IMG/VR virus record: IMGVR_UViG_3300021057_000023
Location: 1-39,698 of that record
DNA length: 39,698 nt
From: a virus
Direction: 5' to 3' (one strand)
The notes under the pieces were generated by a model, which saw only the letters and a program-made list of their open reading frames with translations, made no database searches and was not told the origin of the DNA. Shown piece by piece: positions 14,397 to 38,320 of this stretch (position 1 is the first letter of the stretch; each line of letters opens with the position of its first letter). Both the position numbers and the translations under genes were made by a program.

Positions 14397-14827
14397 ATGC
14401 TCAAGAAAGAAACAGCGAAGGTGCAGCGATCGCGAAGGGCAGGAAAACGGGCGGCAGGGACTTCGCCAAGGGCCAGTCGGGAAATCCGGCCGGCAGAGCG
14501 CCCATCCCGCCGGACCTGAAGGCGGTCAAGGCCCTCTCGGCCGACACCTTCAAGCGGCTCGCCACGGTCTACCTCGAGATGCCTTTCCCCGAGGTCGAGG
14601 CCACGGCCGAGGGCAACGGGCCGGCTCTGAACAAGCTGGTGGCGTCGATCATCGTCCAGGCCACCAAGTACGGGGACCACTCGCGGATGAACGCGCTCCT
14701 GGACCGGATCGTGGGCAAGGCGACGGACAAACTTGAGCTGACGCTGCCCGAGCCCTTCATCGTGCGGCGGCTGACGGGTGAGGAGGTCGTCATGGGAGCT
14801 AAGAAGCCCGACGAGGAGGCCTCGTGA
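14397..14827 (+). CDS. terS: Terminase small subunit-like protein (DUF5681-type GQSGNPxGR motif), apparently needing a -1 frame change
   Basis: FAKGQSGNPAGR is encoded at about 14462..14497 in the frame of ORF 14579..14827. That frame has no ATG, GTG or TTG upstream of 14579. ATG 14397 (MLKKETAKVQRSRRAGK) lies in the +1-offset frame. An ATG-only call would be 14579..14827. Confidence 0.55.
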
Positions 14828-15816
14828 CGCGGCTGTTCGAAGTCCGCCCCTACATCATCGCGGAAATCGGCTCCAACTGGCTCACCCTCTCCGACTGCCT
14901 CGAGTCGATCGCCAAGGCGAAGATGGTGGGCGCGGACGCGGTGAAGTTCCAGGCGTTCAGCCACGAGGCGCTGTACGGCTGGGACGACCGAAAGCTCGAC
15001 GCGCTCGGCTCGGTGGAAAGGCACCAGCTGCAGCTGACCTGGCTCCCGAAGCTCCGCGAGAAGGCCGACGCCTGCGGGATCGAGCTGGGCGTCACGGCGT
15101 TTAGCCCCGAGCTCGTGGCTGCGGTCGATCCCTACGTGGGGTGGCATAAGGTGGCGTCGAGCGACTGCGCGTGGCCGCAGCTGCTCGAGGCGGTGCGGCG
15201 GACCGGGAAGCCGGTCGTCATCAGCTTCGGGGCGCATGGGCGCGTGGACGTTGAGGAGGCCTTAAGGCGTCTCGAGGGCACGCCACGCGTGGCGATGTAC
15301 TGCGTCGCCGCCTACCCGGCCTACCACGTGGACCTCGCTGCCGGAGAGCTGTTCTACGAGATCCTTCCGCCCTACCGGCCCGACGAGCCCGTGGGCGTCG
15401 GCTTCTCCGACCACTCGCTCGGCACCGGGCTTGCGCTCGAGGCTGCGAGCCAGGGCTGCACCGTCATCGAAAAGCACGTCACCTTCATCGACGCCGACAC
15501 GCCCGACCGCCCGCACTCACTCGACGCCGACGGCTTCAAGCTGATGGTCGATACGATCCGGGGGAAGCGGGTGCCGACCTTGGGGCCGACGCCTGAGGAG
15601 AGGGCGATGGTGCTCCGTCATAACCGCAGGCTGATCGCCACCCGCGACGTCGCCCAGGGCGAGACGCTTCGCTACGGCGAGAACTTCGGCGCCTACCGCT
15701 CGCTCGAGGACGACTACCGCGGCCTCTCGCCATGGGCGTGGGAGCAGGTCGAGGGGAAGCGCGCCACCAAGGCGATCGCTAGGGGCAAGGGCGTGGGGCC
15801 GGGGGATTTTGAGTGA
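14824..15816 (+). CDS. neuB: NeuB-family nonulosonic acid synthase (sialic/pseudaminic/legionaminic acid synthase) with C-terminal SAF domain
   Basis: PYIIAEIGSNW, GADAVKFQ, WHKVASSD, GKPVVISFG, VGFSDHSLG and TVIEKHVTF follow the NeuB pattern. The C-terminal RRLIATRDVAQGETL...G is SAF-like. GTGA overlap with terS. Confidence 0.8.
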   Translation: MTRLFEVRPYIIAEIGSNWLTLSDCLESIAKAKMVGADAVKFQAFSHEALYGWDDRKLDALGSVERHQLQLTWLPKLREKADACGIELGVTAFSPELVAAVDPYVGWHKVASSDCAWPQLLEAVRRTGKPVVISFGAHGRVDVEEALRRLEGTPRVAMYCVAAYPAYHVDLAAGELFYEILPPYRPDEPVGVGFSDHSLGTGLALEAASQGCTVIEKHVTFIDADTPDRPHSLDADGFKLMVDTIRGKRVPTLGPTPEERAMVLRHNRRLIATRDVAQGETLRYGENFGAYRSLEDDYRGLSPWAWEQVEGKRATKAIARGKGVGPGDFE

Positions 15817-15911
15817 GTGAGCTCACGAAACAACAGATCCGTCTAACTGTCGTCTATCTGGCAGGCGCGCTCACCAGCCTATTCGTGCTGTGGGTCGCGG
15901 GCCGGCTCTGA
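15813..15911 (+). CDS. Possible small membrane peptide (32 aa)
   Basis: VSELTKQQIRLTVVYLAGALTSLFVLWVAGRL. GTGA overlap with neuB, and its stop abuts the terL ATG (TGAATG). Confidence 0.3.
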   Translation: MSELTKQQIRLTVVYLAGALTSLFVLWVAGRL

Positions 15912-17234
15912 ATGCCTGAATGGCGCCCCCACAGCCCAAAGCAGGAGCGCGCGGTCTTCACCGACCGGCGGATCACGCTGCTCGCCACCGGTATCCAGTT
16001 CGGGAAAACCGCTGCCGGCGCCGTGCGGATGAAGATGGCCCTCCATACGCACACCGACCCGTCGGACGCCTTTCTCATCGTGGCGCCGACCTACAAAGTG
16101 ATGCAGCAGTCCACGCTCCCGGCGTTCCTGAACGTCATGCGAGGCTATGGGGAGTACTCGAAGGCCGACGCGGTCTTTGAGACCTCGTGGGGCACCAAGG
16201 TCTACTGCCGCACGACCTCCGACCCGGACGCCATCGTTGGCATTACGAACATTCGCGCCGTCTGGGCCGACGAGGCCGGGCTCATGAGCTTGTATGCGTG
16301 GGAGAACCTTCAGGCCAGAGCCGCCTTCAAAGAGGCGCCCATCGTCCTCACGACGAGTCCGTACACGCTGAACTGGGTCTTCTCGGAGATCATCCGCCCC
16401 CGGCAGAAGGACCCCGCAGCGCGCCCCGACGTCGAGCTGGTGCAGGCCCGCTCGGACGAAAATCCGTACTTCCCCAAAGAGGAGTACGAGCGCCGCAAGG
16501 CAACCATGGACCCCCGGCGCTTCCGGATGGTCTTCGGCGGCCAGTGGGAGAAGATGGAAGGCCTCGTCTACGACTGCTTCGACGACGACGAGAACGTCGT
16601 GGACCCCTTCCCGCTGCCCGCCGGCACCCGCTTCTACGGCGGGATCGACTGGGGCTATAACCCGGACCCCTTCGTCCTCCTGATCCGGGCTGTGACGCCT
16701 GACGGCAAGCACTTCGAGGTCTCCGAGCACTATCAGACGGGGCTCACGCCCTCGCAGATGGTCTCGCTGGTGCAGCAAAAGCGCCAGGTCTGGGGCGTGA
16801 GGCAGTTCTTCTGCGACCCGAGCCAGCCAGGCCTCATCGCCGAGCTCAATCGCCACGGGTGCGTCGCCACCGGGGCCGACAACGACATCCTGGTGGGCAT
16901 CGGCCGGCACTATGAGCTCGTGAAGACCCGCCGCTACCGGGTCTTCAGAGGGGCGTGCCCGCACCTACTCGACGAGCTGTCGATGTATCATTACCCTGAG
17001 CCCCAAGATCTAAAGCCCGACCAGAATCCCAAAGAGCCAAAGCCCGTGGACCAGCACAATCACGCGGCCGACGCCATGCGCTACGTGACCATGGGGACCT
17101 GGAACCTAGCCGGCGAGCGGCGGCCCATCGTGCCGAGCGGCGAGGGCGGCCGGCCCAAGCCCGAAGAAGACCAGTTCAAGCGCATCGAGAGACTAAAGCG
17201 CCGCTCGGCTCGGGGCGGTTTGGAGGAGTGGTGA
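15912..17234 (+). CDS. terL: Terminase large subunit
   Basis: Walker A-like ATGIQFGKT, Walker B VWADEAG and nuclease-domain motifs GIDWGY and HAADAMRY. Confidence 0.9.
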   Translation: MPEWRPHSPKQERAVFTDRRITLLATGIQFGKTAAGAVRMKMALHTHTDPSDAFLIVAPTYKVMQQSTLPAFLNVMRGYGEYSKADAVFETSWGTKVYCRTTSDPDAIVGITNIRAVWADEAGLMSLYAWENLQARAAFKEAPIVLTTSPYTLNWVFSEIIRPRQKDPAARPDVELVQARSDENPYFPKEEYERRKATMDPRRFRMVFGGQWEKMEGLVYDCFDDDENVVDPFPLPAGTRFYGGIDWGYNPDPFVLLIRAVTPDGKHFEVSEHYQTGLTPSQMVSLVQQKRQVWGVRQFFCDPSQPGLIAELNRHGCVATGADNDILVGIGRHYELVKTRRYRVFRGACPHLLDELSMYHYPEPQDLKPDQNPKEPKPVDQHNHAADAMRYVTMGTWNLAGERRPIVPSGEGGRPKPEEDQFKRIERLKRRSARGGLEEW

Positions 17235-17913: not shown

Positions 17914-19839
17914 ATGGACATGGGGCCGCGTGGCCCTCGAGATGGAGCCCGCCAGATGCTAGACGAGCACGCCCCCAGGACCGGCCCCGAGGACGAGAAA
18001 AAGCCCGCCCAAGAGGCCTGGGAGGGGACGCCGGCCGAGCGAAAGCTGGTCAAGCGGCTCAAGAAGAAGTTCGAGGAGGCCAAGAAGCACAAGAGCCTCT
18101 TCGACGCCAATTGGCTCACCTACTACAAGATGTACCGCGGCCGGCAGTGGGAGACGATGCGCCCCTCCTACCGCCACGGCGAGGTCGTAAACTTCATCTT
18201 TCAGAACGCCCAGAGCATGGTGCCGATCATGCTCGACACGAGGCCCAAGTTCGAGTTCATGGCGACCGAGCCGACCGACCGCGAGTTTGCCGAGATCATG
18301 AACGACCTGGCGGCCTCGGACTGGGAGAAAAAGGGCTGGATGGGCGTTCTGACGGAAGTGGCGTTCGACGGCTGGCAGTACGGCTCTGGCCTCTCTCGCA
18401 TGAAGTACGACCCCGAGGCCGGCCAGGGCTTAGGCGAGATCGACTACCGCTCGGCCGACCCGTTCTACTGCTTTCCCGACCCGGATAGCTCCAAGGTGAA
18501 CGACGAGGACCCCTTCGTCGGCTCCGACTACTTCTGCTACGCGCAGCCGGTCTCCCTTCGGAAGCTGAAAAAGGCCTTCCCGAAGTACGCCAAGTACATG
18601 AAGGCCGACCTGGTCGATCTCACGAGCGACACCAAGCACGACGTGACGCCGCTTCGGATTCGCTCGCCGATCGACAACCGCTCGGTGGTCGAGACGACGG
18701 CCGAGACGGAGTTTCAGCTCCGCGACAAGGCGCTCATGATCGAGATGGTCTGGCGCTGCGACGAGATCGAAGAGATCGAGGTCCCAGGCGGTGTGGACGC
18801 CAACGGCGCGCCCGTGCCGCCGGTCTATGAGCAGCGGCTTAAGTACCCCAACGGCCGCTACACGGTGATCGTCAACGACATCCCCGTCTTTGACGGCCCA
18901 GCGCCCTTGGAGGACGGGACCTTCCCGTGGCAGAAGTTCGACAACTACGTGCTCCAGCGCGAATTCTGGGGCGTGTCGGAGGTCGAGAACCTCAAGAGCC
19001 CGCAGCAGGTCTTCAACAAGCTCGTCTCCTTCTCGCTCGACGTCCTGGCGCTGATGGGCAACCCCATTTGGCTGAACCCCTTTGACTCAGGCGTCGAGGA
19101 CGACCAGCTTGAGAACCGCACGGGCCTCGTCATCCCGCACAACCGCGAGGCGCCGCCGCAGCGGATCGAGGGGGTAAACCTCCAGCCGTGGGTGAGCCAG
19201 TTCATCGACAAGTTCGCCGACTGGTTCAACCAGGTGGGCGGCAGCCAGGACATCACGAGAGGCGTGAACCCCACGGGCGTCACCGCCGCGTCGGCCATCT
19301 CGAGCCTCCAGGACGCCGCGCAGACGAGAGTCCGCCAGAAGTCGCGGAATCTGGACCTCTACCTCCAGCAAGTCGGCCAGTGCTACGCCCAGCTCGTGAT
19401 GCAGCATTACTCGGCGCCCCGGGTTTTCCGGCTCACCGGCAAAGACGGCGCGCAGACCTACTTCAAAGCGCACATCTCCAAGGCCCAGGACGGGACGACC
19501 ATGCTCGTGAGAGAGACCTTCTCGCCCGAAGGCCTCTCGACCGGCATCCAGGAGTACGCGCTCAGAGGGAAGCTCGACGTTCGCGTCTCCACGGGCTCCT
19601 CGCTGCCGTTCAACAAGGCCGAAAAGCGCTCCCAGACGTTGGAGCTGTTCGACCGCGGCCTCATCGACCAGGAGGAGGCCTTGAAGCACGTCGACTGGCC
19701 GAATTACGAGGCCGTCCTGCAACGCATGCAGGCCGCCGCCGCTCAAGCCCAGGCCGCCGAGGCCGAAGCGGCGGCTATGAAAGCCGGCGGCAGCGGCGCA
19801 GCACCCGCTCCCTCAGCGCCGCCGCCACCGGCTGCCTAA
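17914..19839 (+). CDS. Portal protein
   Basis: 641 aa and just downstream of terL. N-terminal WLTYYKMYRGRQW motif, with an Ala-rich C-terminal tail. The start may instead be 17956. Confidence 0.75.
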   Translation: MDMGPRGPRDGARQMLDEHAPRTGPEDEKKPAQEAWEGTPAERKLVKRLKKKFEEAKKHKSLFDANWLTYYKMYRGRQWETMRPSYRHGEVVNFIFQNAQSMVPIMLDTRPKFEFMATEPTDREFAEIMNDLAASDWEKKGWMGVLTEVAFDGWQYGSGLSRMKYDPEAGQGLGEIDYRSADPFYCFPDPDSSKVNDEDPFVGSDYFCYAQPVSLRKLKKAFPKYAKYMKADLVDLTSDTKHDVTPLRIRSPIDNRSVVETTAETEFQLRDKALMIEMVWRCDEIEEIEVPGGVDANGAPVPPVYEQRLKYPNGRYTVIVNDIPVFDGPAPLEDGTFPWQKFDNYVLQREFWGVSEVENLKSPQQVFNKLVSFSLDVLALMGNPIWLNPFDSGVEDDQLENRTGLVIPHNREAPPQRIEGVNLQPWVSQFIDKFADWFNQVGGSQDITRGVNPTGVTAASAISSLQDAAQTRVRQKSRNLDLYLQQVGQCYAQLVMQHYSAPRVFRLTGKDGAQTYFKAHISKAQDGTTMLVRETFSPEGLSTGIQEYALRGKLDVRVSTGSSLPFNKAEKRSQTLELFDRGLIDQEEALKHVDWPNYEAVLQRMQAAAAQAQAAEAEAAAMKAGGSGAAPAPSAPPPPAA

Positions 19840-21227: not shown

Positions 21228-22160
21228 ATGGGCGCCATGGCGCTTACCTGGAACCAAGTCAATGCGCTGACCGAGAAGAAGTGGCTTCCGAAACTGGTCG
21301 ACAACATCTTCGACTCCGACCCGCTTCTGGCGCGCTCGAAGTCGGAGGGCTGGTACACGAAGGAGGACGGCGGCACCTCCATCATGCAGCCGCTCCTCTA
21401 CGCCTCGCTCACCGCCGCCGGCTGGTATCAGGGGGCCGACACCCTGTCCACCGCCGACAATGAGACCTTCACGGCGGCCGAGTTCGCCTGGAAGCAGCTC
21501 TACGTCAACGTCACGATCTCGCGCCGTGACGAGCTGATCAACTCGGGCGACGCCGCCAAGATCAAGCTGGTGGAGAGCAAGCTTCAGGTCGCCGAGAAGA
21601 CCATGAAGGACTACCTGGGCGACGGCCTCTACAACGCCGGCACCGACTCCAAGGCGATCGGCGGCCTGCGCCACATCGTCTCGACGTCGAACACGGTGGG
21701 CGGCATCGCCCAGGGGACCTATTCGTGGTGGCAGGCCGAGGTCGATTCGTCGACCACGACGCTCACCCTCTCGGCCCTTCAGACCATGGACTCCAACCTC
21801 ACCATCGACGGCGAGGGGCCGACGGTCTGGATCGCGACCCGGGCCAACTACAACCGGCTCTACGCGCTCCTGCAGCCGCAGCAGCGGTTCGTGGACCAGA
21901 AGACGGCCAAGGCCGGCTTCACGAGCCTGATGTTCAACGGCAAGCCGTACATCGTCGGCTCCAAGGTCCCGGCCAACTACATCTTCGCGCTCAACGAGAA
22001 GTACCTGAAGCTGGTCGCCCACAAAGACGAGGACATGCGTATGAGCAAGTTCCTCGACTTCACCAACCAGAACGCCCGGACGGCCAAGCTTTACTGGATG
22101 GGTAACCTCACCAGCTCCAACAACCGCATGCACGGCGTCTTCAGCGCCGTCGCCGCCTAA
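21228..22160 (+). CDS. Major capsid protein
   Basis: 310 aa, follows the scaffold gene and precedes the decoration gene. The sequence looks typical of HK97-fold capsid proteins (..FNGKPYIVGSKVPANYIFALNEKYLKL..). Confidence 0.75.
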   Translation: MGAMALTWNQVNALTEKKWLPKLVDNIFDSDPLLARSKSEGWYTKEDGGTSIMQPLLYASLTAAGWYQGADTLSTADNETFTAAEFAWKQLYVNVTISRRDELINSGDAAKIKLVESKLQVAEKTMKDYLGDGLYNAGTDSKAIGGLRHIVSTSNTVGGIAQGTYSWWQAEVDSSTTTLTLSALQTMDSNLTIDGEGPTVWIATRANYNRLYALLQPQQRFVDQKTAKAGFTSLMFNGKPYIVGSKVPANYIFALNEKYLKLVAHKDEDMRMSKFLDFTNQNARTAKLYWMGNLTSSNNRMHGVFSAVAA

Positions 22161-29012: not shown

Positions 29013-29411
29013 ATGGCCATTCGCGGAGTTCAGCCCGTCGCCGCCCAAGATCAGGTGACCGACTACAAGCCGGCGCGTCAGGGCGGAGGCAAAGCCGGTC
29101 AGATGGTCGGCGGCTTTCTCGGCGGCATCGCCGGCATCCCCGGCGGCCCGGCCGGTGTCATGGCGGGCGTCGCCACGGGCTCGAGCCTGGGCGGCGTCGT
29201 CGGCAATGCCATCTCGCCTGAAAAGGCCGCGTCGACGGCCATCGAGCGGCGGCTGCAATCAGCCGGCCCGCAGGTTCAGAGCTCGCCGCAGACCGAGCGC
29301 CTCAAGCAGTCGGTCCTGGCGCTACACCAGGCGCCGCCCGACATCAAAGCTGAGTACGCCGCGCCGCTCGTGAAGGCCTATATGGTCTCGGCCGCCAAGG
29401 ACTACGCCTAA
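29013..29411 (+). CDS. Glycine-zipper membrane-active internal virion protein (putative)
   Basis: GGFLGGIAGIPGGPAGVMAGVATGSSLGGVVG is a glycine-zipper stretch. Confidence 0.5.
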   Translation: MAIRGVQPVAAQDQVTDYKPARQGGGKAGQMVGGFLGGIAGIPGGPAGVMAGVATGSSLGGVVGNAISPEKAASTAIERRLQSAGPQVQSSPQTERLKQSVLALHQAPPDIKAEYAAPLVKAYMVSAAKDYA

Positions 29412-29426
29412 GGGAGCACCGCCGCC

Positions 29427-30602
29427 ATGGGTATCAACACCGTCTCGGTCGTCGGCCCGCGGGCTGAGCCACAGCAGCAGGAAAAGCCCAAGAAGGACAC
29501 CCTGGAGATGATTCTCCAGGGCCTCCAGATCGCCAACTCGGCCATGGGGATCGGCGCGAACTTCACGACGATCCAGAAGCACATGGACGAGCGGGCCGTC
29601 GCCCAGGATCTCCGCCAGGGCATCCTGTCGCAGAAGGACAAGGCGGCCCACCTGTCGACGCTCGAGAACGTCCCCGAGAACACGCCCGGCGCGACGCCGA
29701 TGAAGTATCGCGTGGCCGATGGCGACGAGCCGGGCGCCGTCGAGACCCTCTGGCAGATGGCCAAGAAGACGGAGCCCAAGGCGCCGGAGATGAAGACCCG
29801 GCTGGTCGAGACGAAGAGTCCGGACGGCAAACCGGTTCAGAAGATCGTCGAGGACAAGGTCGGCGCAGAGTTCCCTTCCTACGAGAAGCCCAAGGACACG
29901 GCCGTCGCCGACGCGAAGAAGGACGAGCGCCATAAGGCGGCCGTCGAGCGAGCGCAGGGGAAGCTGAATCAGGAACTCCTGAAGGTGCGCGAGGAGGTGA
30001 ACGTCGCCTCCCAGGTGCGCGAGATGGCGGAGCTGGGGAAGCTCAACCCCATCGCCGCCGCAAACCTTGGCTCCCGGCTGGCGCGCGCCAACGGCGAAAA
30101 GGGCGTCCTAACCGATAAGGACGTCGACCGCCACGGCGGCAGCCAAGCCCTTGCCGACAAGATCGCTCGCTACGTGAAGCGGGCCGAAGAGGGCACTCTG
30201 ACCGACGAGGACGCGCGCTTCTCGATCGAGATGGCCGATATGCTCGAGCGGTCTGCGAGGCAGAAGGAGACCCAAGTCTCCGAGCATTTCGTCCGCCAGT
30301 TCACGAGAAACTACGGCGGCGACTTCGCCGAAAACTACGGCGTGATCGTCGGCACCGATTACGAGCCTCCGGCGTCGACGCAGGCCCCGGGCGAGCCGCA
30401 GCGGAAGCCCGAAAGCGGCACGGCTTTCGCCGCGCCCGCGAGCGAGGGCCTCACGGTCCCCGTTCCCATGCGGGGCGCCACGGGTGTCGCGCCTAAGCCT
30501 ACGGCCGACGACCTCAAGGCGATGGACTGGGCGAAGCAGAATCCCAAGGATCCCCGCGCCCAGCAAATCCGGCAAACCCTCCAGGCGAAGGGGCTTCTCT
30601 AA
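29427..30602 (+). CDS. Internal virion / ejection protein (putative)
   Basis: 391 aa, K/E-rich and helical, located in the internal-protein block. Confidence 0.5.
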   Translation: MGINTVSVVGPRAEPQQQEKPKKDTLEMILQGLQIANSAMGIGANFTTIQKHMDERAVAQDLRQGILSQKDKAAHLSTLENVPENTPGATPMKYRVADGDEPGAVETLWQMAKKTEPKAPEMKTRLVETKSPDGKPVQKIVEDKVGAEFPSYEKPKDTAVADAKKDERHKAAVERAQGKLNQELLKVREEVNVASQVREMAELGKLNPIAAANLGSRLARANGEKGVLTDKDVDRHGGSQALADKIARYVKRAEEGTLTDEDARFSIEMADMLERSARQKETQVSEHFVRQFTRNYGGDFAENYGVIVGTDYEPPASTQAPGEPQRKPESGTAFAAPASEGLTVPVPMRGATGVAPKPTADDLKAMDWAKQNPKDPRAQQIRQTLQAKGLL

Positions 30603-32299
30603 TGCCCGGCTTCGATCCGGACAAGTACTTGGCCCAGAACTCGGCGCCCGCCAAAAAGGACGCCGACGGCGGCTTTGACCCGGATCGCTATCTGGCGAAC
30701 GAGCGGCCGCGGCCGCGCCTCTCGCCCGTCGAATCGGCCATCTCAGGCGCCGCCCAGGGCCTCACCTTCGGCTTCTCGGACGAGATCATCGGCGCGGCGC
30801 GTGCGGGGGTCGGGAAGCTGAAAGGCGAGGGGTCGTTTACCGACCTCTACCCGAAGTATCGCGACGAGCAGCGCCAGCACATCGGGCACGCCAAGAGCGA
30901 TAACCCCATCTCGTTTGGCGTAGGAACCGTGGGGTCTCTCGTCGTCCCGGGCGTCGCCGCGGCGAAGGGCGCCTCGGTCTTCTCGCTCCTGCCCAGGGCC
31001 GCGTCGAGCACGGCTGCCAACGTCGCCAAAGCGGGTGCGGCCGGAGCGCTCACCGGCGCCGGTTACTCCAATGCGAATCCGACCGAGTCGCCGGCGAAGC
31101 TGAAGGAGTTCGGCAAGGACGTCGCGGTCGGCGGGGCCGTCGGCGCTGCGCTCCAGGGCGCGTTCAGCGCTGTCGCCGGCATCGGCAACGCCCTTAGGCC
31201 CTCGTCGCTCAGAAAGTTGGCCGAGGAGAAGGCCGTGAAGGCCGCCGGCGCCATGACCCGCGAACAGCGCGAACTCGCCAGGGCAGGGACACTCCGCCCG
31301 TTGGGCCGAGAACTCCTCGACAAGAAGATCGTCACCTTCGGCGCCTCGCTCGAGGACGTCGCCGAGAGAGCGGGCGCCCAAAAGGCAGCGGCCGGCCAAG
31401 AGATCGGCAACGCATTGCAGAAGGTCGACGACCTCGTCGCCGCAGCTAAGGGCGCGGCCGACGACGGGACGATCGCTCTGCCGGAGCAGGCCAAGGCAGC
31501 GTTCAAGGCGCAGCTCGACGACGCCTACCAGTTCAACATGCAGCGAATCGGCCAGCGCATCGAAAAAGAGATCATCGCGCCGAACGCCAAGAACCCGCTC
31601 CTACGCGGCGAGATGCAGAAGCTCGCAGCCATCGCCGACGACTTCAAGAGCCAGGCGCCGCAGACGCTCGCCGAAGGCAACGTCATCAAAGGGACGCAGG
31701 GCAAGATTACCAACTTCAACTCGGACACGGTCCCGCAGGCCTTCAAGCAGGAGGTCTATGGGATCATCAAGACCGAGCTCGAGGACGTGGTCGAAAAGAC
31801 GGCGCAGCTCCAAGCCGCGGTCGCCAAGAACACGGGCCTCCAGGTCCCGAAGCTGGCCGAGGGGGCGAAGGACGCCAAGGCCGCCTATGTCGCCGCAAAA
31901 AAGTCCTACGGGCTCTCGAAAGAGGCCGAGGAAATCGCCGAGCGGCGCCTAGGGACGGTTCGCTCCAACCGCGAACTCAGCCTCACCGACTACATCGCCG
32001 GCGGCGCCGGCCTTGCCTCTGGAGGCCCCGCGCAAGCCCTGCTTCTGGGCGGCGCCAACAAGCTTCTGCGGCGCTATGGCGACGCGGCGCTGGCGGTCGG
32101 CGCGGACAAGTTGGCTCTCGTCATCGAGAAGTCGCCCGAGGCCCTGGGCAAGTTCGGGCCGCTGCTCATCAAAGCCGCTCGCGACAACACGTCCCTGATG
32201 GCGACCCACACGGCGCTCATGAAGGACCCCGAGTACGCCGCCATCATCAAGAACACGCCGACCAACGCCATCCAGCGCCGCCTCCAGGGAGGGAGATAG
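30602..32299 (+). CDS. Large internal virion / ejection protein (putative)
   Basis: 565 aa and Ala/Gly-rich. Its position is analogous to T7 gp15/gp16. Confidence 0.5.
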   Translation: MPGFDPDKYLAQNSAPAKKDADGGFDPDRYLANERPRPRLSPVESAISGAAQGLTFGFSDEIIGAARAGVGKLKGEGSFTDLYPKYRDEQRQHIGHAKSDNPISFGVGTVGSLVVPGVAAAKGASVFSLLPRAASSTAANVAKAGAAGALTGAGYSNANPTESPAKLKEFGKDVAVGGAVGAALQGAFSAVAGIGNALRPSSLRKLAEEKAVKAAGAMTREQRELARAGTLRPLGRELLDKKIVTFGASLEDVAERAGAQKAAAGQEIGNALQKVDDLVAAAKGAADDGTIALPEQAKAAFKAQLDDAYQFNMQRIGQRIEKEIIAPNAKNPLLRGEMQKLAAIADDFKSQAPQTLAEGNVIKGTQGKITNFNSDTVPQAFKQEVYGIIKTELEDVVEKTAQLQAAVAKNTGLQVPKLAEGAKDAKAAYVAAKKSYGLSKEAEEIAERRLGTVRSNRELSLTDYIAGGAGLASGGPAQALLLGGANKLLRRYGDAALAVGADKLALVIEKSPEALGKFGPLLIKAARDNTSLMATHTALMKDPEYAAIIKNTPTNAIQRRLQGGR

Positions 32300-32359
32300 T
32301 CCGGCTCATGTGATAGACATCACGAGCCGCAAACACTGTCCCGCCAAGGAGTACAAGCG

Positions 32360-32830
32360 ATGGGCAAGGGCTGGAAATCGACCGATACGATCGAGCAACG
32401 GTTCTACAAGTTCGTCGAGAAGACGGACGCCTGTTGGCTTTGGCGCGGCACCCTCGCGAACGTCGGCTACGGCTTTATGACCTTCCAGGGCAAGCGCCTG
32501 CAGACCCACCGCACGTCCTACGAGATGCACAAGGGACCGATCCCGGAGGGCATGTTCGTCTGCCATAAGTGCGACGTGCGGGCGTGCGTGAATCCAGACC
32601 ATCTCTTTCTCGGAACGATCCAGGACAACCGCGCCGACTGCGTTCAGAAGCGCCGCCATGGGCACGGCGACACGCACGGCAATGCCAAGCTGTCCGCGAA
32701 TGACGTCATCACGATGCGGCGCCTGTTCGCTTCAGGGAAGTATACGAAAGCCGCTCTGGCTAGGCGCTTTGGCGTGACTCCACCGACGGCGCAAAAGGTC
32801 ATCGACAGAAAAAACTGGACACATCTCTAG
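32360..32830 (+). CDS. HNH homing endonuclease
   Basis: CWLWRG....GYGF......HRTSYEMHKGPIPEGMFVCHKCDVRACVNPDHLFLGTIQDNRADC is an HNH_3-type pattern, followed by a C-terminal HTH-like tail. AAGGAG lies upstream. Confidence 0.8.
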   Translation: MGKGWKSTDTIEQRFYKFVEKTDACWLWRGTLANVGYGFMTFQGKRLQTHRTSYEMHKGPIPEGMFVCHKCDVRACVNPDHLFLGTIQDNRADCVQKRRHGHGDTHGNAKLSANDVITMRRLFASGKYTKAALARRFGVTPPTAQKVIDRKNWTHL

Positions 32831-32845: not shown

Positions 32846-33751
32846 ATGCCGGCGCCATCGCTGACGTACACGCTCACTAACGGCTCGACCGCGGACGCGA
32901 GTCAGGTCATGCAGGACCTGAACGATCTGCTCAACGGCATCACCGACGGCACGAAAGACCTCTCCATCTCGGCGCTCACCGTCGCCGGCACGCTGACTGC
33001 CAACGGCAACGTCAACCTGGGCAACGCCTCGGGCGACGACCTGACGATCACGGCGTCGCTGGCGTCGACAATCCCCATCAAGACGACGGCGAGCTATGAC
33101 ATCGGCTCGTCGACACTTGGCCTCCGGGCGATCTACTTCGGCCGCAACGGCCAGACGGTGAACGTCGTCGGCTCGTCGTCCATGTCGGCGACGTGGACCT
33201 TGACGCTCCCGGTGTCGGCGGGGACGGCGAACTACCTGCTCACCACCAACGGCTCGGGCGTGACGTCGTGGACGGCCATCTCGGACTCGAACTTTCTCGC
33301 GACCTCGTCGGCCGGTGGCACCGTCTCCTATTACGCCGACAACGGCACGTTCACGCCGACGCTCAAGGGCTCTACGGCAGATCCGACGAGTATCAGCTAC
33401 ACGGCGCAGCACGGCTTCTACGTGCGTATCGGCAAGCTAGTCGTCATGTGGGGCCGCCTCGGCTGGGACGCGGCCACGGGCGGGACAGGGACGCTTCGCG
33501 TCGGCGCCATCCCGTTTGCGGCGACCGGGACCTCGAACTACCGTGCCCAGATTTTCCTCGCGACCTCGAACATCGCGCAGTCGGGGATCACGAGCGACGG
33601 CTGGTTCACTGGCGAGATCGAGGCGAGCCAGCAGTTCATAAACGTCAACCACTCCTACGAGGGCTCCGGCCAGGCGTCAACCTCGGTCGGCGACAACAAC
33701 GGCGCCGTGGCGCGCACGATCTTCTTCTCCGGCTGCTACCTCGTCGCCTGA
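32846..33751 (+). CDS. Tail fibre / receptor-binding protein
   Basis: N-terminus TNGSTADASQVMQDLNDLLNGI is a typical tail-fibre N-terminal motif. The body is S/T/G-rich and beta-like, and the gene is the last structural gene. Confidence 0.65.
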   Translation: MPAPSLTYTLTNGSTADASQVMQDLNDLLNGITDGTKDLSISALTVAGTLTANGNVNLGNASGDDLTITASLASTIPIKTTASYDIGSSTLGLRAIYFGRNGQTVNVVGSSSMSATWTLTLPVSAGTANYLLTTNGSGVTSWTAISDSNFLATSSAGGTVSYYADNGTFTPTLKGSTADPTSISYTAQHGFYVRIGKLVVMWGRLGWDAATGGTGTLRVGAIPFAATGTSNYRAQIFLATSNIAQSGITSDGWFTGEIEASQQFINVNHSYEGSGQASTSVGDNNGAVARTIFFSGCYLVA

Positions 33752-33756
33752 GCATT

Positions 33757-33773
33757 GCCTCGGACCCCGAGGC
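33757..33773 (+). terminator. Hairpin after the tail fibre gene
   Basis: GCCTCGG-acc-CCGAGGC. No clear T tract follows. Confidence 0.3.
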
Positions 33774-33786
33774 CTGCTACCCTGCC

Positions 33787-33805
33787 CGATAAATCAGATT
33801 TATCG
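33787..33805. promoter_or_regulatory. Perfect 19-bp palindrome upstream of the sugar cassette
   Basis: CGATAAATC-A-GATTTATCG in a locally AT-rich segment. GATTT recurs twice more before the ATG at 33823. Confidence 0.4.
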
Positions 33806-33822
33806 CCGTCGGATTTCTATTG

Positions 33823-34101
33823 ATGGATTTAATCACCTGGGCTCTCGCCCTCGGCCTATTAACCGTCGTGCAGGCCGCAGGGTTCATGGCCTGGCGTCTC
33901 CGAAGGGAGCGCCAGGCCTATAGCGCAGCGCTCGCCGCCCATGAAAAGCGCGCCGCCGAGCAGCTAGCCGCAGCCGAGAAGGCGCCGGCACCGACCCATG
34001 ACGCCAAGCGCGTCTTGGCCGCCCTGGCGTCCTCGTCGGCCATCGTCCGCATCGACGTCCTCGATCCGGGGGACTTCTTCATCCGCTCACCACGGGGGTA
34101 G
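33823..34101 (+). CDS. Membrane-anchored hypothetical protein (92 aa)
   Basis: N-terminal hydrophobic stretch LITWALALGLLTVVQAAGFMAW. It is the first gene of the cassette. Confidence 0.55.
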   Translation: MDLITWALALGLLTVVQAAGFMAWRLRRERQAYSAALAAHEKRAAEQLAAAEKAPAPTHDAKRVLAALASSSAIVRIDVLDPGDFFIRSPRG

Positions 34102-34103
34102 CG

Positions 34104-34997
34104 ATGCGCTACGTCATCGTCGGCGGCACGGGGACCATGGGCCGGGCGCTCACCAAGGCGCTCTTGGCCAGGAAAGACACCGAGCGCGTCCTCATCGTCT
34201 CGCGCGGGGAGCTAAAGCAAAAGGAGCTTAGGGACGCCAACCCCGGCGAGTACGCGCGTGGGCGCCTGCGCTTTGTGATCGGCGACGTGCGCGACAAAGA
34301 CGCGATGTACGAGGCGATCGACCCGGGCGTCTCGGCCGTCTTTCTCTGCGCGGCTTTGAAGCACGTCGACGTCGCCGAGGACAACCCGCTAGAGGCCCTG
34401 AAAACCAACGCTCTCGGCGTCGCCAACGTCGCCGAGGCGGCGATGACGGCCGACGTCCCGCACGTCGTCTTCAGCTCGACCGACAAGGCCTGTCTGCCGG
34501 TGAACGCCTACGGCATGAGCAAGGCCTGGGCCGAGCGGTATCTGTGGGCCATGAACCGCCGGCAGGTGGGCACCCGCTTTGCCGTCTACCGCTGGGGGAA
34601 CGTCCTGGGCTCGCGCGGCTCGGTGATCCACGACTTCATCCGAACGCTTGAAACCTCGCGCTCGGTCTCGGTCACCGACCCTCGGATGACGCGCTTTTGG
34701 CTCAAGATCGAGGAGGCCGTCGCCTTCATGCTCTCGACCTACCGCGACGCCGCCCCTGATCGGCCGATGATTCCCAAGATGCGGGCCTCGAGCGTCATGG
34801 AGCTGGCCGAGGCGACCGCCCGGCTCATGAAGATGACCGACTTCGAGGTCAAGGTGGTCGGCATCCGCAACGGCGAGAAGCTTCACGAGACCATCGAATC
34901 GACGCACGAGAAGTGCCTCAGGTCCGACACGGCCGAACGCTTCTCGAAAGAGGACCTTGAGGCCCTCATTGCTCCGCTCATCGAGGGCTGCGCGTGA
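34104..34997 (+). CDS. pseB: PseB/FlaA1/CapD-type UDP-GlcNAc 4,6-dehydratase (short-chain dehydrogenase fold)
   Basis: VGGTGTMG, GDVRDKD, AALKHVDVAEDNPLEALKTN, STDKACLPVNAYGMSKAWAE, RWGNVLGSRGSVIHDF, TDPRMTRFW and GIRNGEKLHE follow the Polysacc_synt_2 pattern. Confidence 0.8.
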   Translation: MRYVIVGGTGTMGRALTKALLARKDTERVLIVSRGELKQKELRDANPGEYARGRLRFVIGDVRDKDAMYEAIDPGVSAVFLCAALKHVDVAEDNPLEALKTNALGVANVAEAAMTADVPHVVFSSTDKACLPVNAYGMSKAWAERYLWAMNRRQVGTRFAVYRWGNVLGSRGSVIHDFIRTLETSRSVSVTDPRMTRFWLKIEEAVAFMLSTYRDAAPDRPMIPKMRASSVMELAEATARLMKMTDFEVKVVGIRNGEKLHETIESTHEKCLRSDTAERFSKEDLEALIAPLIEGCA

Positions 34998-35617
34998 GAA
35001 AGGTCTGCCTCGTCGGTCACCGCGGCGGCATGGGTCGCCGCTATCAGGCGGTCCTCAAGCACCTCGGCTACCGGGTCGTCGGCCACGACTTGGCCGACGG
35101 CTACAAGCCCCTGCGCGTCCGTATCGCCGAAGCCCAGGGATGCGACGGGGTACTCATCGCCACGCCGACCGACGCCCACATTGCGTCCATCCACGAGTAC
35201 ATGCGCGCCGGGCGCCCCATCCTCTGCGAGAAGCCCATCTCCCGCGACCCCTTTGCGCTGCGCGCGCTCTTAGACGACGTGCAGGCCCGAAAGGCGCCGC
35301 TCCAGATGGTCCGCCAGTACGAGAGGCTGGTGGAGGAGAAGGACGAGGGCCTCACCGAGTACGACTACTTTCGCTCAGGATCGGACGGCCTCCATTGGGA
35401 CTGCATCTCGATCGTGTCGCTGGCCAAGGGGACGGTCCGGCTGGCAAGCGAGAGCCCCCTGTGGAAGTGCCAGATCAACGGCCGGCGTCTGTCGCTTGCC
35501 GACATGGACCGTGCCTACGTGGAGATGGTGGACGAATGGCTGAAGGCCCCGCGCGACGACTCCGGGCGGCTCATGGAGTGGCACCTGAAGGTCGCCCAGA
35601 TGAAGGCCTCGGCGTGA
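34994..35617 (+). CDS. Gfo/Idh/MocA-family NAD(P)-dependent oxidoreductase (short form)
   Basis: KVCLVGHRGGMGRRY and LIATPTDAHIASIHEYMRAGRPILCEKPIS match the family signature. GTGA overlap. Confidence 0.65.
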   Translation: MRKVCLVGHRGGMGRRYQAVLKHLGYRVVGHDLADGYKPLRVRIAEAQGCDGVLIATPTDAHIASIHEYMRAGRPILCEKPISRDPFALRALLDDVQARKAPLQMVRQYERLVEEKDEGLTEYDYFRSGSDGLHWDCISIVSLAKGTVRLASESPLWKCQINGRRLSLADMDRAYVEMVDEWLKAPRDDSGRLMEWHLKVAQMKASA

Positions 35618-36345
35618 AGACGGTACTCATCGGCATCCAGGCCCGGTCGACCTCGACGCGGCTGCCGAGAAAGGCGTTTGCCACGATCGGCGATCGGATG
35701 CTCCTAGACCACGTCTTGAAGGCCTGTAAGGACTCGGCCTTTTACCTCAACAACGCGCGCCGCCGGACCCAACTGGCCCGCGTGGCCCTGCTCGTGCCCG
35801 AGGGCGATCCGATCGCCGCGGCCTTTCGCGACCGCTGCTACATCGTCGAAGGCCCCGAGGACGACGTCCTGACGCGCTATGCTTACGCCGCCCAGGAGTT
35901 TAGCGCCCACTACGTGGTCCGAATCACGGCCGACTGCCCCAAGATCCCGCCCTACGTGATCTCGGCCCACGTCGCTCGTGCCCTGGCACCCGGGACGCCG
36001 CTCGACTATCTGTCCAACGTCGACGAGGACGCCCGCACGTCGCCCGACGGCCACGACTGCGAGGTCATCAGCCGGCGGCTTCTGGACCACGTCCACGCCG
36101 AGGCGAAGTCGGCCTTTGACAGAGAGCACGTGACGACCTTCATCCGCCGCGGCGTGAGAGAGAGGACGCTCTCTAGGGACTTTCGCTGCAAGGTGACCGT
36201 GGGCTTTACCGACGACTCGGCCAAAAAGCTTTCCGTCGACACCGAGGACGACCTAAGGCGCGTCAGAGAGGATGACGACCGCGTCGAGGCCAAGATCCGC
36301 CGGGGCCTTGAGATCTACGGCCCCGAGGGAGTCCTGCGCCTATGA
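35614..36345 (+). CDS. pseF: SpsF/PseF-like cytidylyltransferase (CTP_transf_3 family), putative CMP-sugar synthetase
   Basis: LIGIQARSTSTRLPRKAF...DDVLTRY...VVRITADCPKIPP matches the IQAR.gStRLPgK / RiTaDcP pattern. GTGA overlap at 35614. The track's 462-aa ORF is an artefactual upstream extension. Confidence 0.7.
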   Translation: MKTVLIGIQARSTSTRLPRKAFATIGDRMLLDHVLKACKDSAFYLNNARRRTQLARVALLVPEGDPIAAAFRDRCYIVEGPEDDVLTRYAYAAQEFSAHYVVRITADCPKIPPYVISAHVARALAPGTPLDYLSNVDEDARTSPDGHDCEVISRRLLDHVHAEAKSAFDREHVTTFIRRGVRERTLSRDFRCKVTVGFTDDSAKKLSVDTEDDLRRVREDDDRVEAKIRRGLEIYGPEGVLRL

Positions 36346-37553
36346 TCGACTTCTCGGATCAGCGCCGCGCCAATCTCTCGATCGCGCAAGGGGCGCTCAC
36401 CAACTCCAAGCGCCCTGAGATCTTCGTAAAGGGCGTCTACCCCACGCACGTCATCCGCGGCCGAGGCTGCTTTCTCTGGGACACGGCTGGCCGCAAGTAC
36501 GTGGACTTTGTCTGCGGCCTGGGCTCGAACCTCCTGGGCTACGCGCACGAGACCATTACGTCGGCCGTGATCTCGCAGATGGGCGCCGGTACGACGCTCT
36601 CGCTCTCGACCGTGCTCGAGATGGAGGTGGCCGAGCGGATCAAGGGCCTCGTGCCCTTCATTGACGCCGTGAAGTTCCTAAAGACCGGCACCGAGGCCTG
36701 CATGGCGGCGATCAAGATTGCCCGGGCCAAGACAGGCAGAAGGCTAGTCTTATCAGATGGATACCATGGCTGGTCGGACCCCTTCGTCTCGCTCACGCCG
36801 CCCGCCGCCGGCGTCGTCCCCGACTCTAAGTCGCTCTGCGTGGCCAAGCTCACCGACTTCTCGCAGATCACGCCGTCGGTGGCCGCGGTCATCGTCGAGC
36901 CCGTCGTCACCGACTGGTCGGCCGAGCGCCGCCGCTATCTTGAGCAGCTGCGCGCGGCCTGCGATCGGGCCGGCGCGCTCCTCATCTACGACGAGGTCAT
37001 CACCGGCTGGCGCTGGCCGAGCTACACGGTCGCGCAGGCCTGGGGCGTGACGCCGGATCTCATCTGCCTCGGCAAGGCCATCGGCGGGGGGCTGCCGCTG
37101 TCGGTCGTCGGTGGCAAGTACGCCGTGATGAATGGCTCTGAGTACTTCGTCTCGTCCACGTTCGCCGGCGACCAGGCGGCCCTGGCGGCGGCCAACTCGG
37201 TCATGGCTCTGCTCGGGGGTCGTTACTCGCTCTCGCGCCTTTGGGAGCAGGGGGCGGCGTTTCTCGAGCGCTTCAATCGCCTCTGGCCGGACGCCGTCAA
37301 GATCGTCGGCTATCCCACCCGCGGCGCCTTCCAGGGGGACGCCGGGGTCAAGGCGCTGCTGTGGCAGGAGGCCTGCCGCGCGGGGATTCTGCTCGGGCCA
37401 TCGTGGTTCTACTGCTTCCCGCACATCGACGAGCAGGAGGCCGTCCTGGGGACCTTGGCGGACATCATGAAGCGCATCCGCGCGGGCCAGGTGGAACTGA
37501 AAGGCGAGCCGCCGCGCTCGCCGTTTGCCGCACAGGTGAGGGGGAAGGCGTGA
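36342..37553 (+). CDS. Class-III PLP-dependent aminotransferase (glutamate-1-semialdehyde aminomutase-like)
   Basis: DFVCGLGSNLLGY, DEVITGWRW and LGKAIGGGLPLSVVGGK (Schiff-base Lys context) are typical Aminotran_3 motifs. ATGA overlap. Confidence 0.75.
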   Translation: MIDFSDQRRANLSIAQGALTNSKRPEIFVKGVYPTHVIRGRGCFLWDTAGRKYVDFVCGLGSNLLGYAHETITSAVISQMGAGTTLSLSTVLEMEVAERIKGLVPFIDAVKFLKTGTEACMAAIKIARAKTGRRLVLSDGYHGWSDPFVSLTPPAAGVVPDSKSLCVAKLTDFSQITPSVAAVIVEPVVTDWSAERRRYLEQLRAACDRAGALLIYDEVITGWRWPSYTVAQAWGVTPDLICLGKAIGGGLPLSVVGGKYAVMNGSEYFVSSTFAGDQAALAAANSVMALLGGRYSLSRLWEQGAAFLERFNRLWPDAVKIVGYPTRGAFQGDAGVKALLWQEACRAGILLGPSWFYCFPHIDEQEAVLGTLADIMKRIRAGQVELKGEPPRSPFAAQVRGKA

Positions 37554-38320
37554 ACGTGACCTTGGAGCTCGGACCGCTCGAGAGCTGCCTCATCGAGACG
37601 TTTCGCCGCTGGCGTAACGATCCTCGGATCTGGCGGTGGACGAGACAGAACGACTTCATCTCGGACATCTCGCAGCGCGACTGGCTAGACCGCATGGCCA
37701 AGTGCAACCAGACGCGCATGTACCAGATCAACCTGCGGATCGACGACAGGCCCGCAGAGCCCGTTGGCGTCTGCGGCCTCACCAACATCGACTGGGGGAA
37801 CCGCCGGACCGAGCTGTCGCTCTATATCGCGCCCGAGCACCATCGCAAAGGCTTTGGCCGCAGGGCCTGCGATCTGCTCCTCATGCACGCCTTCGTGAAC
37901 CTCAACCTCAGGCTCGTCTGGGCTGAGAGCTTCGACGGGAATCCTGCGATCAAGATGTTCGAGAGCCTGGGGTTTGTTCGCGAGGGCACCCGGCGTGACT
38001 TCTACTGGAAGGACGGCAGATATTGGAACGCCCACCTTCTTTCGATCAAGGTAGACGAATGGATTACCTCGAAATCGCCCACCTCGCCATCAGCCTCGCC
38101 ATCCTCGTCCTCATCGCCATCGGCTTCCGTAGCTCCCTTGGATGCAGCCGTCAGCACGCCCCAGAAGATCGCGACCGCCATGAGGCGCCCGCGCGGCAGG
38201 CCCCGGAGGCTAGGCCAACCCCTCCCCCCGGCAGCGCCTACGCCGGCCCCCCTAGAGCCGCTAGCGGAAGCGGCAAGCGACGCCCCATCGCCATCGACGA
38301 CGCCCGGGCTTACCGGCTAG
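37550..38320 (+). CDS. pseH: GNAT-family N-acetyltransferase (PseH-like) with a 90-aa S/P-rich readthrough tail
   Basis: RRWRNDPRIWRW....ISQRDWLDRM....VGVCGLTNIDWGNRRTELSLYI..EHHRKGFGRRA......NLRLVWAESFDGNPAIKMFESLGFVREG. The domain ends near 38050 and the rest overlaps a better-coded ORF in another frame. Confidence 0.65.
   Translation: MNVTLELGPLESCLIETFRRWRNDPRIWRWTRQNDFISDISQRDWLDRMAKCNQTRMYQINLRIDDRPAEPVGVCGLTNIDWGNRRTELSLYIAPEHHRKGFGRRACDLLLMHAFVNLNLRLVWAESFDGNPAIKMFESLGFVREGTRRDFYWKDGRYWNAHLLSIKVDEWITSKSPTSPSASPSSSSSPSASVAPLDAAVSTPQKIATAMRRPRGRPRRLGQPLPPAAPTPAPLEPLAEAASDAPSPSTTPGLTG

Follow-up and report, generated by a model that had tools for sequence, protein, structure and literature searches.

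Among the late genes of the virus genome recorded in IMG/VR as IMGVR_UViG_3300021057_000023, all 39,698 nucleotides of which were analysed and are called the window below, are seven open reading frames (ORFs) whose products resemble enzymes for a sialic-acid-like sugar together with a transferase of the Maf type (Table 1). A sequence-only reading of this DNA had proposed that they serve to glycosylate the virion. One gene, for a NeuB-family synthase, precedes that for the large terminase (TerL); a second, for the Maf-type protein, follows the genes for the major capsid protein and for a smaller capsid protein of the cement or decoration kind; the remaining five form a cassette between the tail-fibre and lysis genes and encode, in order, a PseB-like dehydratase, a Gfo/Idh/MocA-type oxidoreductase, a cytidylyltransferase, an aminotransferase and a GNAT acetyltransferase. 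All seven ORFs were recovered on the plus strand where that reading had placed them, in the late region among the terminase, portal and major capsid genes, and profile searches assigned every family it had named (NeuB, SAF, PF01973, Polysacc_synt_2, GFO_IDH_MocA, CTP_transf_3, Aminotran_3 and GNAT), the Pfam matches lying above the gathering score. In these searches 39 window ORFs were scanned with Pfam and 27 with PHROGs, some ORFs shorter than about 130 residues being left out, and NCBIfam equivalog models were judged against their curated cut-offs. Dozens of related contigs carry the same genes in the same arrangement, so the set is not a chance assortment.

Table 1. Features of the window, with nucleotide positions; genes of the proposed system and their neighbours are listed first.
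Feature	Position	Strand	Basis or remark
NeuB-family ulosonic-acid synthase with SAF domain	14824..15816	+	Pfam NeuB 127.8 bits, SAF 32 bits
Minimal, core-only Maf-type glycosyltransferase, 338 residues	22673..23689	+	PF01973 MptE-like/DUF115
PseB/FlaA1-like UDP-N-acetylglucosamine (UDP-GlcNAc) 4,6-dehydratase	34104..34997	+	Polysacc_synt_2 256.8 bits
Truncated Gfo/Idh/MocA NAD-binding oxidoreductase, 207 residues	34994..35617	+	PF01408 29.4 bits, residues 45-102 only
SpsF-type cytidylyltransferase	35614..36345	+	CTP_transf_3 52.2 bits
Class-III (HemL-like) pyridoxal-phosphate aminotransferase	36342..37553	+	Aminotran_3 152.3 bits
GNAT N-acetyltransferase	37550..38320	+	Acetyltransf_3 62 bits
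Major capsid protein	21228..22160	+	phrog_9953 major head protein, E 1.1e-55; possible acceptor
Capsid cement/decoration protein, 160 residues	22173..22655	+	homologues match PF09956; favoured candidate acceptor
82-residue ORF	14579..14827	+	stop overlaps NeuB start (GTGA)
Two hairpins, upstream cassette border	33751..33812	+	fold -24.5 kcal/mol, z -3.3
Small single-pass membrane protein	33820..34101	+	N-terminal hydrophobic helix
Hairpin and U-run, terminator-like downstream cassette border	38394..38430	+	
Large terminase (TerL)	15912-17234	+	
P22/SU10-type portal	17914-19839	+	
Tail fibre	32846-33751		conserved N-terminus
CI-like helix-turn-helix repressor	8159-8542	-	temperate-type module
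ERF recombinase	9351-10109		temperate-type module
Tyrosine integrase	13300-14385		temperate-type module

The Maf-type transferase and its conservation

The protein encoded directly downstream of the cement gene matches PF01973 with 78.9 bits against a cut-off of 34.6, over residues 61-231. Its predicted structure (predicted local distance difference test score, pLDDT, 91.9, from an alignment of 27 homologues) had as its top match in a Foldseek search the Maf of M. magneticum (5MU5, E = 1.3e-8; 14% identity over the aligned model), followed by an archaeal MptE, a 6-hydroxymethyl-dihydropterin pyrophosphokinase (HPPK), and by the human sialyltransferase ST8SiaIII. A sequence profile of the family likewise ranked 5MU5 first (E = 0.002) and aligned D124 of the phage protein with E324 of the M. 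magneticum enzyme (MmMaf), a residue that, like D415, the enzyme requires to be active (bioRxiv 10.1101/2020.06.03.131540). All 121 close homologues (100%) keep D124, and 93% keep D226, which lies in a GxD motif and is by position only the likely equivalent of D415. The elements GPSL (residues 81-84), D124, G224-x-D226 and T288-E-G-G are common to these 121 sequences and to 29 homologues of Maf length (at least 500 residues). With this fold match and the retained putative catalytic aspartate the Maf-type call stands, and the enzyme looks active.

One alternative holds that the PF01973 protein is not a glycosyltransferase at all but an MptE-like pyrophosphokinase, or a structural or assembly protein, the sugar genes being unrelated metabolic cargo. 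The family does also span the archaeal MptE enzymes, one of which was the second-best structural match (8SD5, E = 5e-5), and the phage protein is without half the length of the characterised Mafs. We nevertheless consider this highly improbable, as 5MU5 is the best match by profile and by structure, with sialyltransferases following, the acidic residue aligned with the catalytic E324 is invariant, a pathway for a sugar linked to cytidine monophosphate (CMP) accompanies the gene in every locus that could be checked, and the complete genome holds no folate or pterin genes. The kinase assignment was dropped in view of the better match to Maf and of this CMP-sugar context.

With the bacterial enzymes (MmMaf, CbMaf, GkMaf, Shewanella Maf-1 and Maf-2/GlfM) the phage protein shares the PF01973 central domain and its fold, an acidic residue at the position aligned with E324, and the motifs GPSL, GxD and TEGG, and in flagellar glycosylation islands, as in the phage, genes for a NeuB synthase and a CMP-sugar synthetase accompany Maf. 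Bacterial Mafs, however, are about 570-660 residues long and bind flagellin through a domain of tetratricopeptide repeats (TPR) at the C-terminus or through a GlfM partner (bioRxiv 10.1101/2023.12.03.569772). The phage Maf has only 338 residues and consists of the core domain alone, without TPR or flanking domains, and hence lacks the acceptor-binding domains of its bacterial counterparts; no helical GlfM-like gene adjoins it, the 91-residue product of the downstream gene not looking helical by eye, and, unlike bacterial Mafs, it is encoded in the head module of a complete genome that has no flagellin gene. In an exhaustive search of 1.84 billion representatives the strong matches were proteins of 330-420 residues, and for those of 570-630 residues the match was weaker (1e-13 to 1e-9) and confined to the central part.

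The Maf query returned 1,524 protein clusters, the best 120 of which are 336-359 residues long and 57-99% identical to it, many of them on contigs of 35-40 kb. Related loci, numbered below with the prefix L, keep a fixed order in tblastn matrices over 48 loci: (82-residue ORF)-NeuB-TerL-portal-capsid-cement-Maf, then, after intervening genes, a 633-residue tail protein (p633) and, after others, fibre-PseB-Gfo-cytidylyltransferase-class-III aminotransferase-GNAT. Normalised for length, Maf scores best of all the genes, at 1.09 bits per residue and a median identity of 55%, ahead of the capsid protein (1.01 and 53%); the median identity is 47% for TerL and 41% for the portal. Because the first loci (L002-L030) had come through Maf, the family was resampled through the capsid protein alone, and each of the 13 loci whose capsid protein is at least 41% identical to that of the window has Maf just downstream of the capsid and cement genes; in one outlier, with a capsid protein only 24% identical, no Maf lies just downstream. 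Maf is as conserved as the capsid protein. The oxidoreductase, cytidylyltransferase, aminotransferase and GNAT genes were seen in the loci that reach the cassette, the oxidoreductase being labelled or detected in most loci covering its position and missed by tblastn in L033 and L041, and NeuB stands before TerL in 16 of the 17 loci reaching that region. The core in the sampled loci is Maf with these four cassette genes; NeuB is nearly universal and PseB variable. The full set of seven is present, on gene maps labelled with Pfam, in further lineages with genomes of 39.4, 38.0 and 36.7 kb.

The predicted donor and its candidate acceptors

The NeuB-family protein, which would condense phosphoenolpyruvate with a sugar, has as its best solved relative the C. 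jejuni pseudaminic acid (Pse) synthase PseI (8H2C, E = 6.5e-22), with the SDHS and EKH motifs aligned. The dehydratase is closest among solved structures to H. pylori FlaA1 (2GN4, E = 6e-52), its STDKA and YGxxK motifs aligning, and the acetyltransferase matches PseH (4XPK, E = 2.9e-4), SpeG-type enzymes scoring higher. The Pse-type labels given to these proteins by the sequence-only reading hold as resemblance only, because all of the NCBIfam equivalog matches fall far below their cut-offs: 233.7 against 407.75 bits for PseB (TIGR03589), 65 against 93.1 for PseH (TIGR03585) and 118 against 340 for PseI, with the NeuB model nearly equal at 113. The oxidoreductase was rightly placed in the Gfo/Idh/MocA family (iolG model, E = 6.7e-11; 4HKT, E = 1.7e-8, with the EKP motif aligned) but is a truncated form, only a short stretch of which matches the profile. 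For the cytidylyltransferase the best solved relative is 6OEW (E = 4.8e-15), and the NCBIfam scan gave only weak matches to KdsB. Its homologues number 896; the best 120, of about 232-254 residues, many on contigs of 35-40 kb and several named SpsF by JGI, look like members of the phage family, so that a search for bacterial homologues from which the sugar might be read yielded none among these 120. The aminotransferase is of class III and HemL-like, which ruled out a DegT/PseC-type assignment; its closest solved relatives are glutamate-1-semialdehyde (GSA) aminomutases (E about 1e-44), and it also matches sugar C-6' aminotransferases (PDB 9AU3 and 7LLD) and the neamine transaminase NeoN.

The joint presence of NeuB, of CTP_transf_3 and of a Maf with a sialyltransferase-like fold points to a CMP-linked 2-keto-3-deoxy sugar acid as donor. 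Such a donor would be produced by the NeuB-type synthase and the SpsF-type cytidylyltransferase acting with a tailoring set of PseB-like dehydratase, truncated Gfo-type oxidoreductase, class-III aminotransferase and GNAT, and the tailoring enzymes suggest that it is an acetamido-substituted, probably deoxy, Pse-like sugar.

The GNAT domain, which had been called correctly, ends near position 38080, but the ORF runs on from 38080 to 38320 as a tail of about 80 residues, low in complexity and rich in Ser, Pro and Ala. Its relatives have 118-264 residues, most of them (118-212 residues) being without the tail and the L070 form having 264; the tail may be a real linker or a mere run-on of the ORF in GC-rich sequence. 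Between the aminotransferase and GNAT genes, which overlap in the window, several relatives carry a conserved ORF of 65-74 residues that looks helical (L065 11918-12115, L073 4817-5041 and L075 11917-12120) and could encode an accessory or specificity factor.

The protein encoded directly upstream of Maf has no Pfam match of its own, but PF09956 (Phage_cement_2) is matched by 10 of its 32 homologues, and its predicted structure (pLDDT 80) matches the base of the phi29 head fibre and the cement or decoration proteins of Pam3, TW1, T1 and XM1, as well as DUF2190 and capsid-fibre proteins in BFVD. Because of these matches we read the gene order as capsid, cement protein, Maf. Y66, S67, T69 and S71 are invariant in the family alignment within 'GYSVTVSxTT', a Ser/Thr-rich strand of what is a capsid protein exposed on the surface. 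The major capsid protein itself is 30-34% identical to those of the Myxococcus phages Mx8 and Mx9, and the head-module genes around Maf show short gaps and Shine-Dalgarno-like sequences.

With a probability that we put at roughly 55%, the phage makes, or finishes and activates, a CMP-linked sialic-acid-like acid and uses it to glycosylate its own virion, most likely the capsid decoration protein. The minimal Maf of the head module would attach the sugar to Ser or Thr of a phage protein, either the cement protein encoded directly upstream, which is the most likely acceptor, or the major capsid protein, and the outcome would be a particle with an acidic glycan coat. A phage-encoded acceptor, in particular the cement or capsid protein, is favoured on four counts: Maf is a fixed head-module gene; across a family that apparently infects many host taxa it is conserved to the same degree as the capsid protein; it has lost the modules by which bacterial Mafs are directed to flagellin; and the upstream neighbour has an exposed, invariant Ser/Thr strand. 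The breadth of hosts is suggested by the GC content of the family loci, which spans 37-67% and is easier to reconcile with a conserved acceptor encoded by the phage than with a variable one of the host. A fuller version of this proposal, to which we would give somewhat less than even odds, is that uncultured, globally distributed podophages of about 36-40 kb make their own CMP-sugar, with a class-III aminotransferase in place of PseC and without PseG, and have re-targeted a Maf from flagellin to cement protein.

Pathway gaps, the cassette and competing explanations

Several points weigh against virion glycosylation with a phage-made sugar. What the enzymes do, which sugar results, what it is attached to and when the genes are expressed are predicted from homology and gene context. 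The anchoring of L002-L030 on Maf inflates its apparent conservation, and in the sets anchored on the capsid protein and on p633 Maf is 40-58% identical against 41-68% for the capsid protein. The set in which the sequence-only reading had seen a resemblance to a CMP-nonulosonic-acid pathway is not recognisable as a complete route to Pse or legionaminic acid (Leg): among the scanned ORFs of this complete genome there is no hydrolase of the PseG/NeuC/LegG type, the unscanned ones being too short for PseG (about 270 residues or more), and no aminotransferase of the DegT/DnrJ/EryC1 (PseC) type, only that of class III. Known nonulosonic acid pathways can therefore not be traced end to end. A 301-residue ORF at 728-1633 on the minus strand was considered as a hidden PseG and rejected, since it gave just a weak match to the helical part of a hexosaminidase and nothing in Pfam or PHROGs. 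Even the genes that are present vary among relatives, as in L065-67 no PseB-like gene was seen ahead of Gfo, in L075 this gene is broken up into two ORFs, and NeuB was not found before TerL in two lineages, represented by L068 and by L029, the latter having the most divergent Maf (40% identity). In the L065-L068 lineage Maf and the four core cassette genes are present with neither NeuB before TerL nor PseB before Gfo.

Gaps of this kind would be expected if the oxidoreductase, cytidylyltransferase, aminotransferase and GNAT took a host-made ulosonic acid or a precursor of one, such as 3-deoxy-D-manno-oct-2-ulosonic acid (Kdo), Pse, Leg or N-acetylneuraminic acid (Neu5Ac), oxidised, aminated and N-acetylated it at one position and then activated it with CMP for Maf, NeuB and PseB being optional. 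An oxidoreductase, an aminotransferase and an acetyltransferase together form a known route from a hydroxyl to an acetamido group, as in WbpB/E/D and in the enzymes KdnB and KdnA that make Kdo8N (8-amino-8-deoxy-Kdo). The relatives of the class-III aminotransferase among the C-6' aminotransferases and NeoN act on sugar aldehydes, there is a precedent in EpaA and EpaB for phage genes that tailor a host-made nonulosonic acid (PMC12053666), and CbMaf can transfer Kdo and Neu5Ac (bioRxiv 10.1101/2020.06.03.131540). Yet most lineages carry NeuB, one of them in two copies, and a PseB-like gene with aligned catalytic motifs, which suggests that the phage usually builds the backbone itself; in the NeuB-less L065-L068 lineage about 7.6 kb of genome lies outside the data, so that the absence of NeuB and PseB there is unproven; and reliance on hosts with nonulosonic acid pathways would narrow the host range, which is at odds with the wide GC span of the loci. 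We regard such salvage as rather unlikely. It concerns the source and identity of the donor, is compatible with an acceptor on the virion or on the host, and does not exclude virion glycosylation.

A different set of counter-arguments comes from the cassette itself, which we take to be a separable unit because it is bounded by hairpins and inverted in some relatives. The upstream hairpins directly follow the stop codon of the tail-fibre gene, their fold being matched by 0 of 200 shuffled sequences, and the downstream terminator-like hairpin lies in an 81-nucleotide stretch (38370-38450; -45.7 kcal/mol, z -6.5) that was again matched by 0 of 200. The five genes between them are linked by four 4-nucleotide stop/start overlaps. 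To that extent the coupling that the sequence-only reading had described is present, but NeuB is coupled to the 82-residue ORF and lies 95 nucleotides from TerL; similarly, all of the genes are on the structural strand in the window, as had been claimed, but not across the family, the cassette being inverted in L036 and L073. A small membrane protein is encoded directly 5' of the cassette in 4 of the 4 lineages examined (the window, L070 8228-8545, L065 9145-9366 and L075 8283-8498); a 'KAPAxT' stretch and, at the C-terminus, an '(R/K)SPR' motif are conserved in it, and it goes with the cassette wherever the endolysin gene lies. In the window 2 nucleotides lie between it and the next gene. Its hairpin borders, its inversion and the preceding membrane protein make the cassette resemble independently expressed cargo, possibly linked to the membrane, and this too speaks against a virion target, as does the temperate-type equipment of the genome (integrase, CI-like repressor and ERF), because of which lysogenic conversion is possible.

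These features would suit a role in remodelling the host surface, the cassette and Maf modifying flagellin, pilin, S-layer, lipopolysaccharide or capsule with an acidic sugar either in the lysogen, for lysogenic conversion or superinfection exclusion, or during infection, where it would stop progeny from adsorbing to lysed cells; the cassette lies in a position between fibre and lysis genes and ends in a strong terminator-like element, and EpaA and EpaB, which are prophage-encoded and act on the A. baumannii capsule (PMC12053666), again offer a precedent. Maf, however, lies outside the cassette, in every relative within the head module between the cement gene and other small structural genes, and has neither the flagellin-binding TPR nor GlfM features; its capsid-level conservation over loci of 37-67% GC is hard to square with a host-specific acceptor; and NeuB adjoins the terminase gene. 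Furthermore, a scan with the Maf alignment that covered 185,579 bacterial and archaeal species, each through a single genome, gave no clear integrated prophage copy, only three contigs of metagenome-assembled genomes (Saccharibacteria, 'uncultured bacterium' and Glaciecola), which are probably mis-binned phage contigs. Host-surface remodelling therefore appears unlikely to us.

If the acceptor is on the particle, it need not belong to the capsid. Most relatives examined have the cassette just downstream of the fibre gene, Ser and Thr abound in the fibre protein, and the glycosylated protein of HRPV-1, a pleomorphic virus of Halorubrum, is its receptor-binding spike (PMC6137143), so that a glycan on the tail fibre or receptor-binding apparatus could be imagined to tune adsorption or to protect the fibres. 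We think this distinctly improbable, given that Maf sits beside the capsid and cement genes, with about 9 kb between it and the fibre gene downstream, that the fibre C-termini are highly variable across the family (29-76% identity, with often only the N-terminus aligning) whereas Maf is strongly conserved, and that the slot beside the fibre gene is also a usual place for cargo.

Related systems and genome context

Phage particles are usually treated as bare protein. Mycobacteriophages that glycosylate their virions reportedly do so with conventional glycosyltransferases and host nucleotide sugars, whereas here the transferase is of the Maf type, the putative donor is a CMP-ulosonic acid and the sugar biosynthesis genes are carried by the phage. 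Virion glycosylation is reported for Che8 and its relatives (Freeman 2023, cited in PMC11256854), and the likeness lies in a phage-encoded transferase and in a capsid protein as the target, which is a proposed one here. The prophage proteins EpaA, which combines a CTP_transf_3 domain with a reductase, and EpaB act in A. baumannii, where they turn host Pse into 8-epi-Pse on the capsule (PMC12053666); they too are phage-borne and act on a nonulosonic acid, but they only epimerise host-made Pse, no synthase or transferase is encoded with them, and their effect is lysogenic conversion. As regards lysogenic-conversion cassettes in general, which are cargo units with boundaries of their own that integrated prophages carry and that act on host glycans, the phage cassette is bounded by hairpins and inverted in some relatives, Maf and NeuB lie outside it, and the species scan gave no integrated copy. 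In HRPV-1 the spike protein VP4 bears 5-N-formyl-legionaminic acid, which is implicated in adsorption (PMC6137143). Like the particle proposed here, it is that of a prokaryotic virus displaying a nonulosonic acid, but HRPV-1 is an enveloped archaeal virus, its glycan is N-linked, and the pathway and transferase are wholly those of the host. Set beside the canonical routes to CMP-Pse (PseB, PseC, PseH, PseG, PseI and PseF) and CMP-Leg, the phage has a PseB/FlaA1-like, a weakly PseH-like GNAT, a NeuB/PseI-like and a CTP_transf_3 protein, but it differs in its class-III aminotransferase and truncated Gfo, in the absence of PseG/NeuC and DegT, and in that PseB appears dispensable or decaying in some relatives.

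As the sequence-only reading had supposed, no characterised equivalent was found in phage records, PHROGs or the literature searched. Against 50,697 deposited phage records, megablast of positions 14000-38400 and tblastn with Maf gave no match, NeuB gave two weak, unrelated matches, and the capsid protein matched only distantly, to Mx8, Mx9 and Brucella phages; Maf, NeuB, the Gfo-type protein and the cytidylyltransferase are each without a family in PHROGs, and no paper on a phage with such a system turned up in the full-text literature searched, the coverage of which is incomplete, so that a description may have been missed. Both virion glycosylation and Maf-type glycosylation with nonulosonic acids are known, and what would be new is the donor, the enzyme and the virus-encoded pathway. 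If the proposal is right, an acidic sialic-acid-like coat, built from phage-made nonulosonic acid by a Maf-type enzyme, would be a new virion surface chemistry, giving the first 'sialylated' phage capsid and the first Maf with a viral acceptor other than flagellin. It could change how the particles adsorb or aggregate, how stable they are, how they are grazed or recognised by immune systems, and how other microbes recognise them, and the trait likely matters in nature because it is fixed in a large environmental family, to judge from the number of Maf clusters and the GC range of the loci. A core-only Maf of this size with a co-encoded candidate acceptor would also be a simpler object than the flagellar Mafs for studying acceptor choice and could serve as a compact tool for glyco-engineering of the protein-sialylation type, and from the non-canonical pathway a new route to nonulosonic or ulosonic acid sugars, or a new sugar of that kind, may come to light.

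Cargo genes gather at the position next to the terminase gene in this phage family. The 82-residue ORF is 32-49% identical to ORFs upstream of NeuB in relatives and occupies the position of a small-terminase-like gene there; in L022 the gene before NeuB has a weak match to GP3_package (P22 gp3-like small terminase; 26.8 bits, below the 29.4 cut-off). L022 also has NeuB placed between this gene and one for a Dam-like methyltransferase (69-3068), with an N6_N4 DNA methylase gene upstream. A 38-kb relative, L072, carries two tandem NeuB paralogues of 328 and 331 residues before TerL (1-3414). Genes for a Tet_JBP dioxygenase and a Methyltransf_21 protein lie upstream of the pair and suggest that DNA bases are hypermodified in this lineage.

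The window has a GC content of 66%, and its termini (1-127 and 39572-39698) are an exact 127-bp direct repeat, because of which we regard the assembly, with about 39,571 unique bases, as complete and either circular or overlapping at its ends. The genome is that of a temperate-type podophage in a large uncultured family. Its left arm consists chiefly of small minus-strand genes, including those for the CI-like repressor, a Tad2-like protein and an HNH endonuclease; from about 8.8 kb on all genes are on the plus strand, where a replication initiator gene accompanies ERF and the integrase. The late order is TerL, portal, a gene in the scaffold position and capsid, followed further on by an SU10-type adaptor, tail genes, tail fibre, the sugar cassette and an NlpC/P60 lysin. 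No tRNA genes were found in the window, and scans of it for promoter and terminator consensus sequences gave matches no more frequent than in shuffled sequence.

The IMG/VR contig IMGVR_UViG_3300020215_000094 is a close mosaic relative, 90-99% identical across most of the window but without a nucleotide match to positions 28482-32825, a distal tail block encoding proteins of 283, 132, 391 and 565 residues and an HNH gene; this block is a mosaic swap of the distal tail region. The HNH_3 gene concerned (32360-32830, plus strand), which lies within the tail module just before the fibre gene and has a counterpart only in L014/L036, looks like a homing-endonuclease insertion, and a second HNH_3 gene lies at 4937-5650 on the minus strand. 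In the 146-residue early protein encoded at 4629-5069 on the minus strand, a domain resembling Tad2 (Thoeris anti-defence 2) scored 27.2 bits (cut-off 25), and the protein is possibly an anti-defence protein. Between Maf and the SU10-type adaptor, a 151-residue protein (24768-25223; phrog_5417), which has a weak tail-fibre-like match, shows the highest identity in the family (median 63%, up to 74%).

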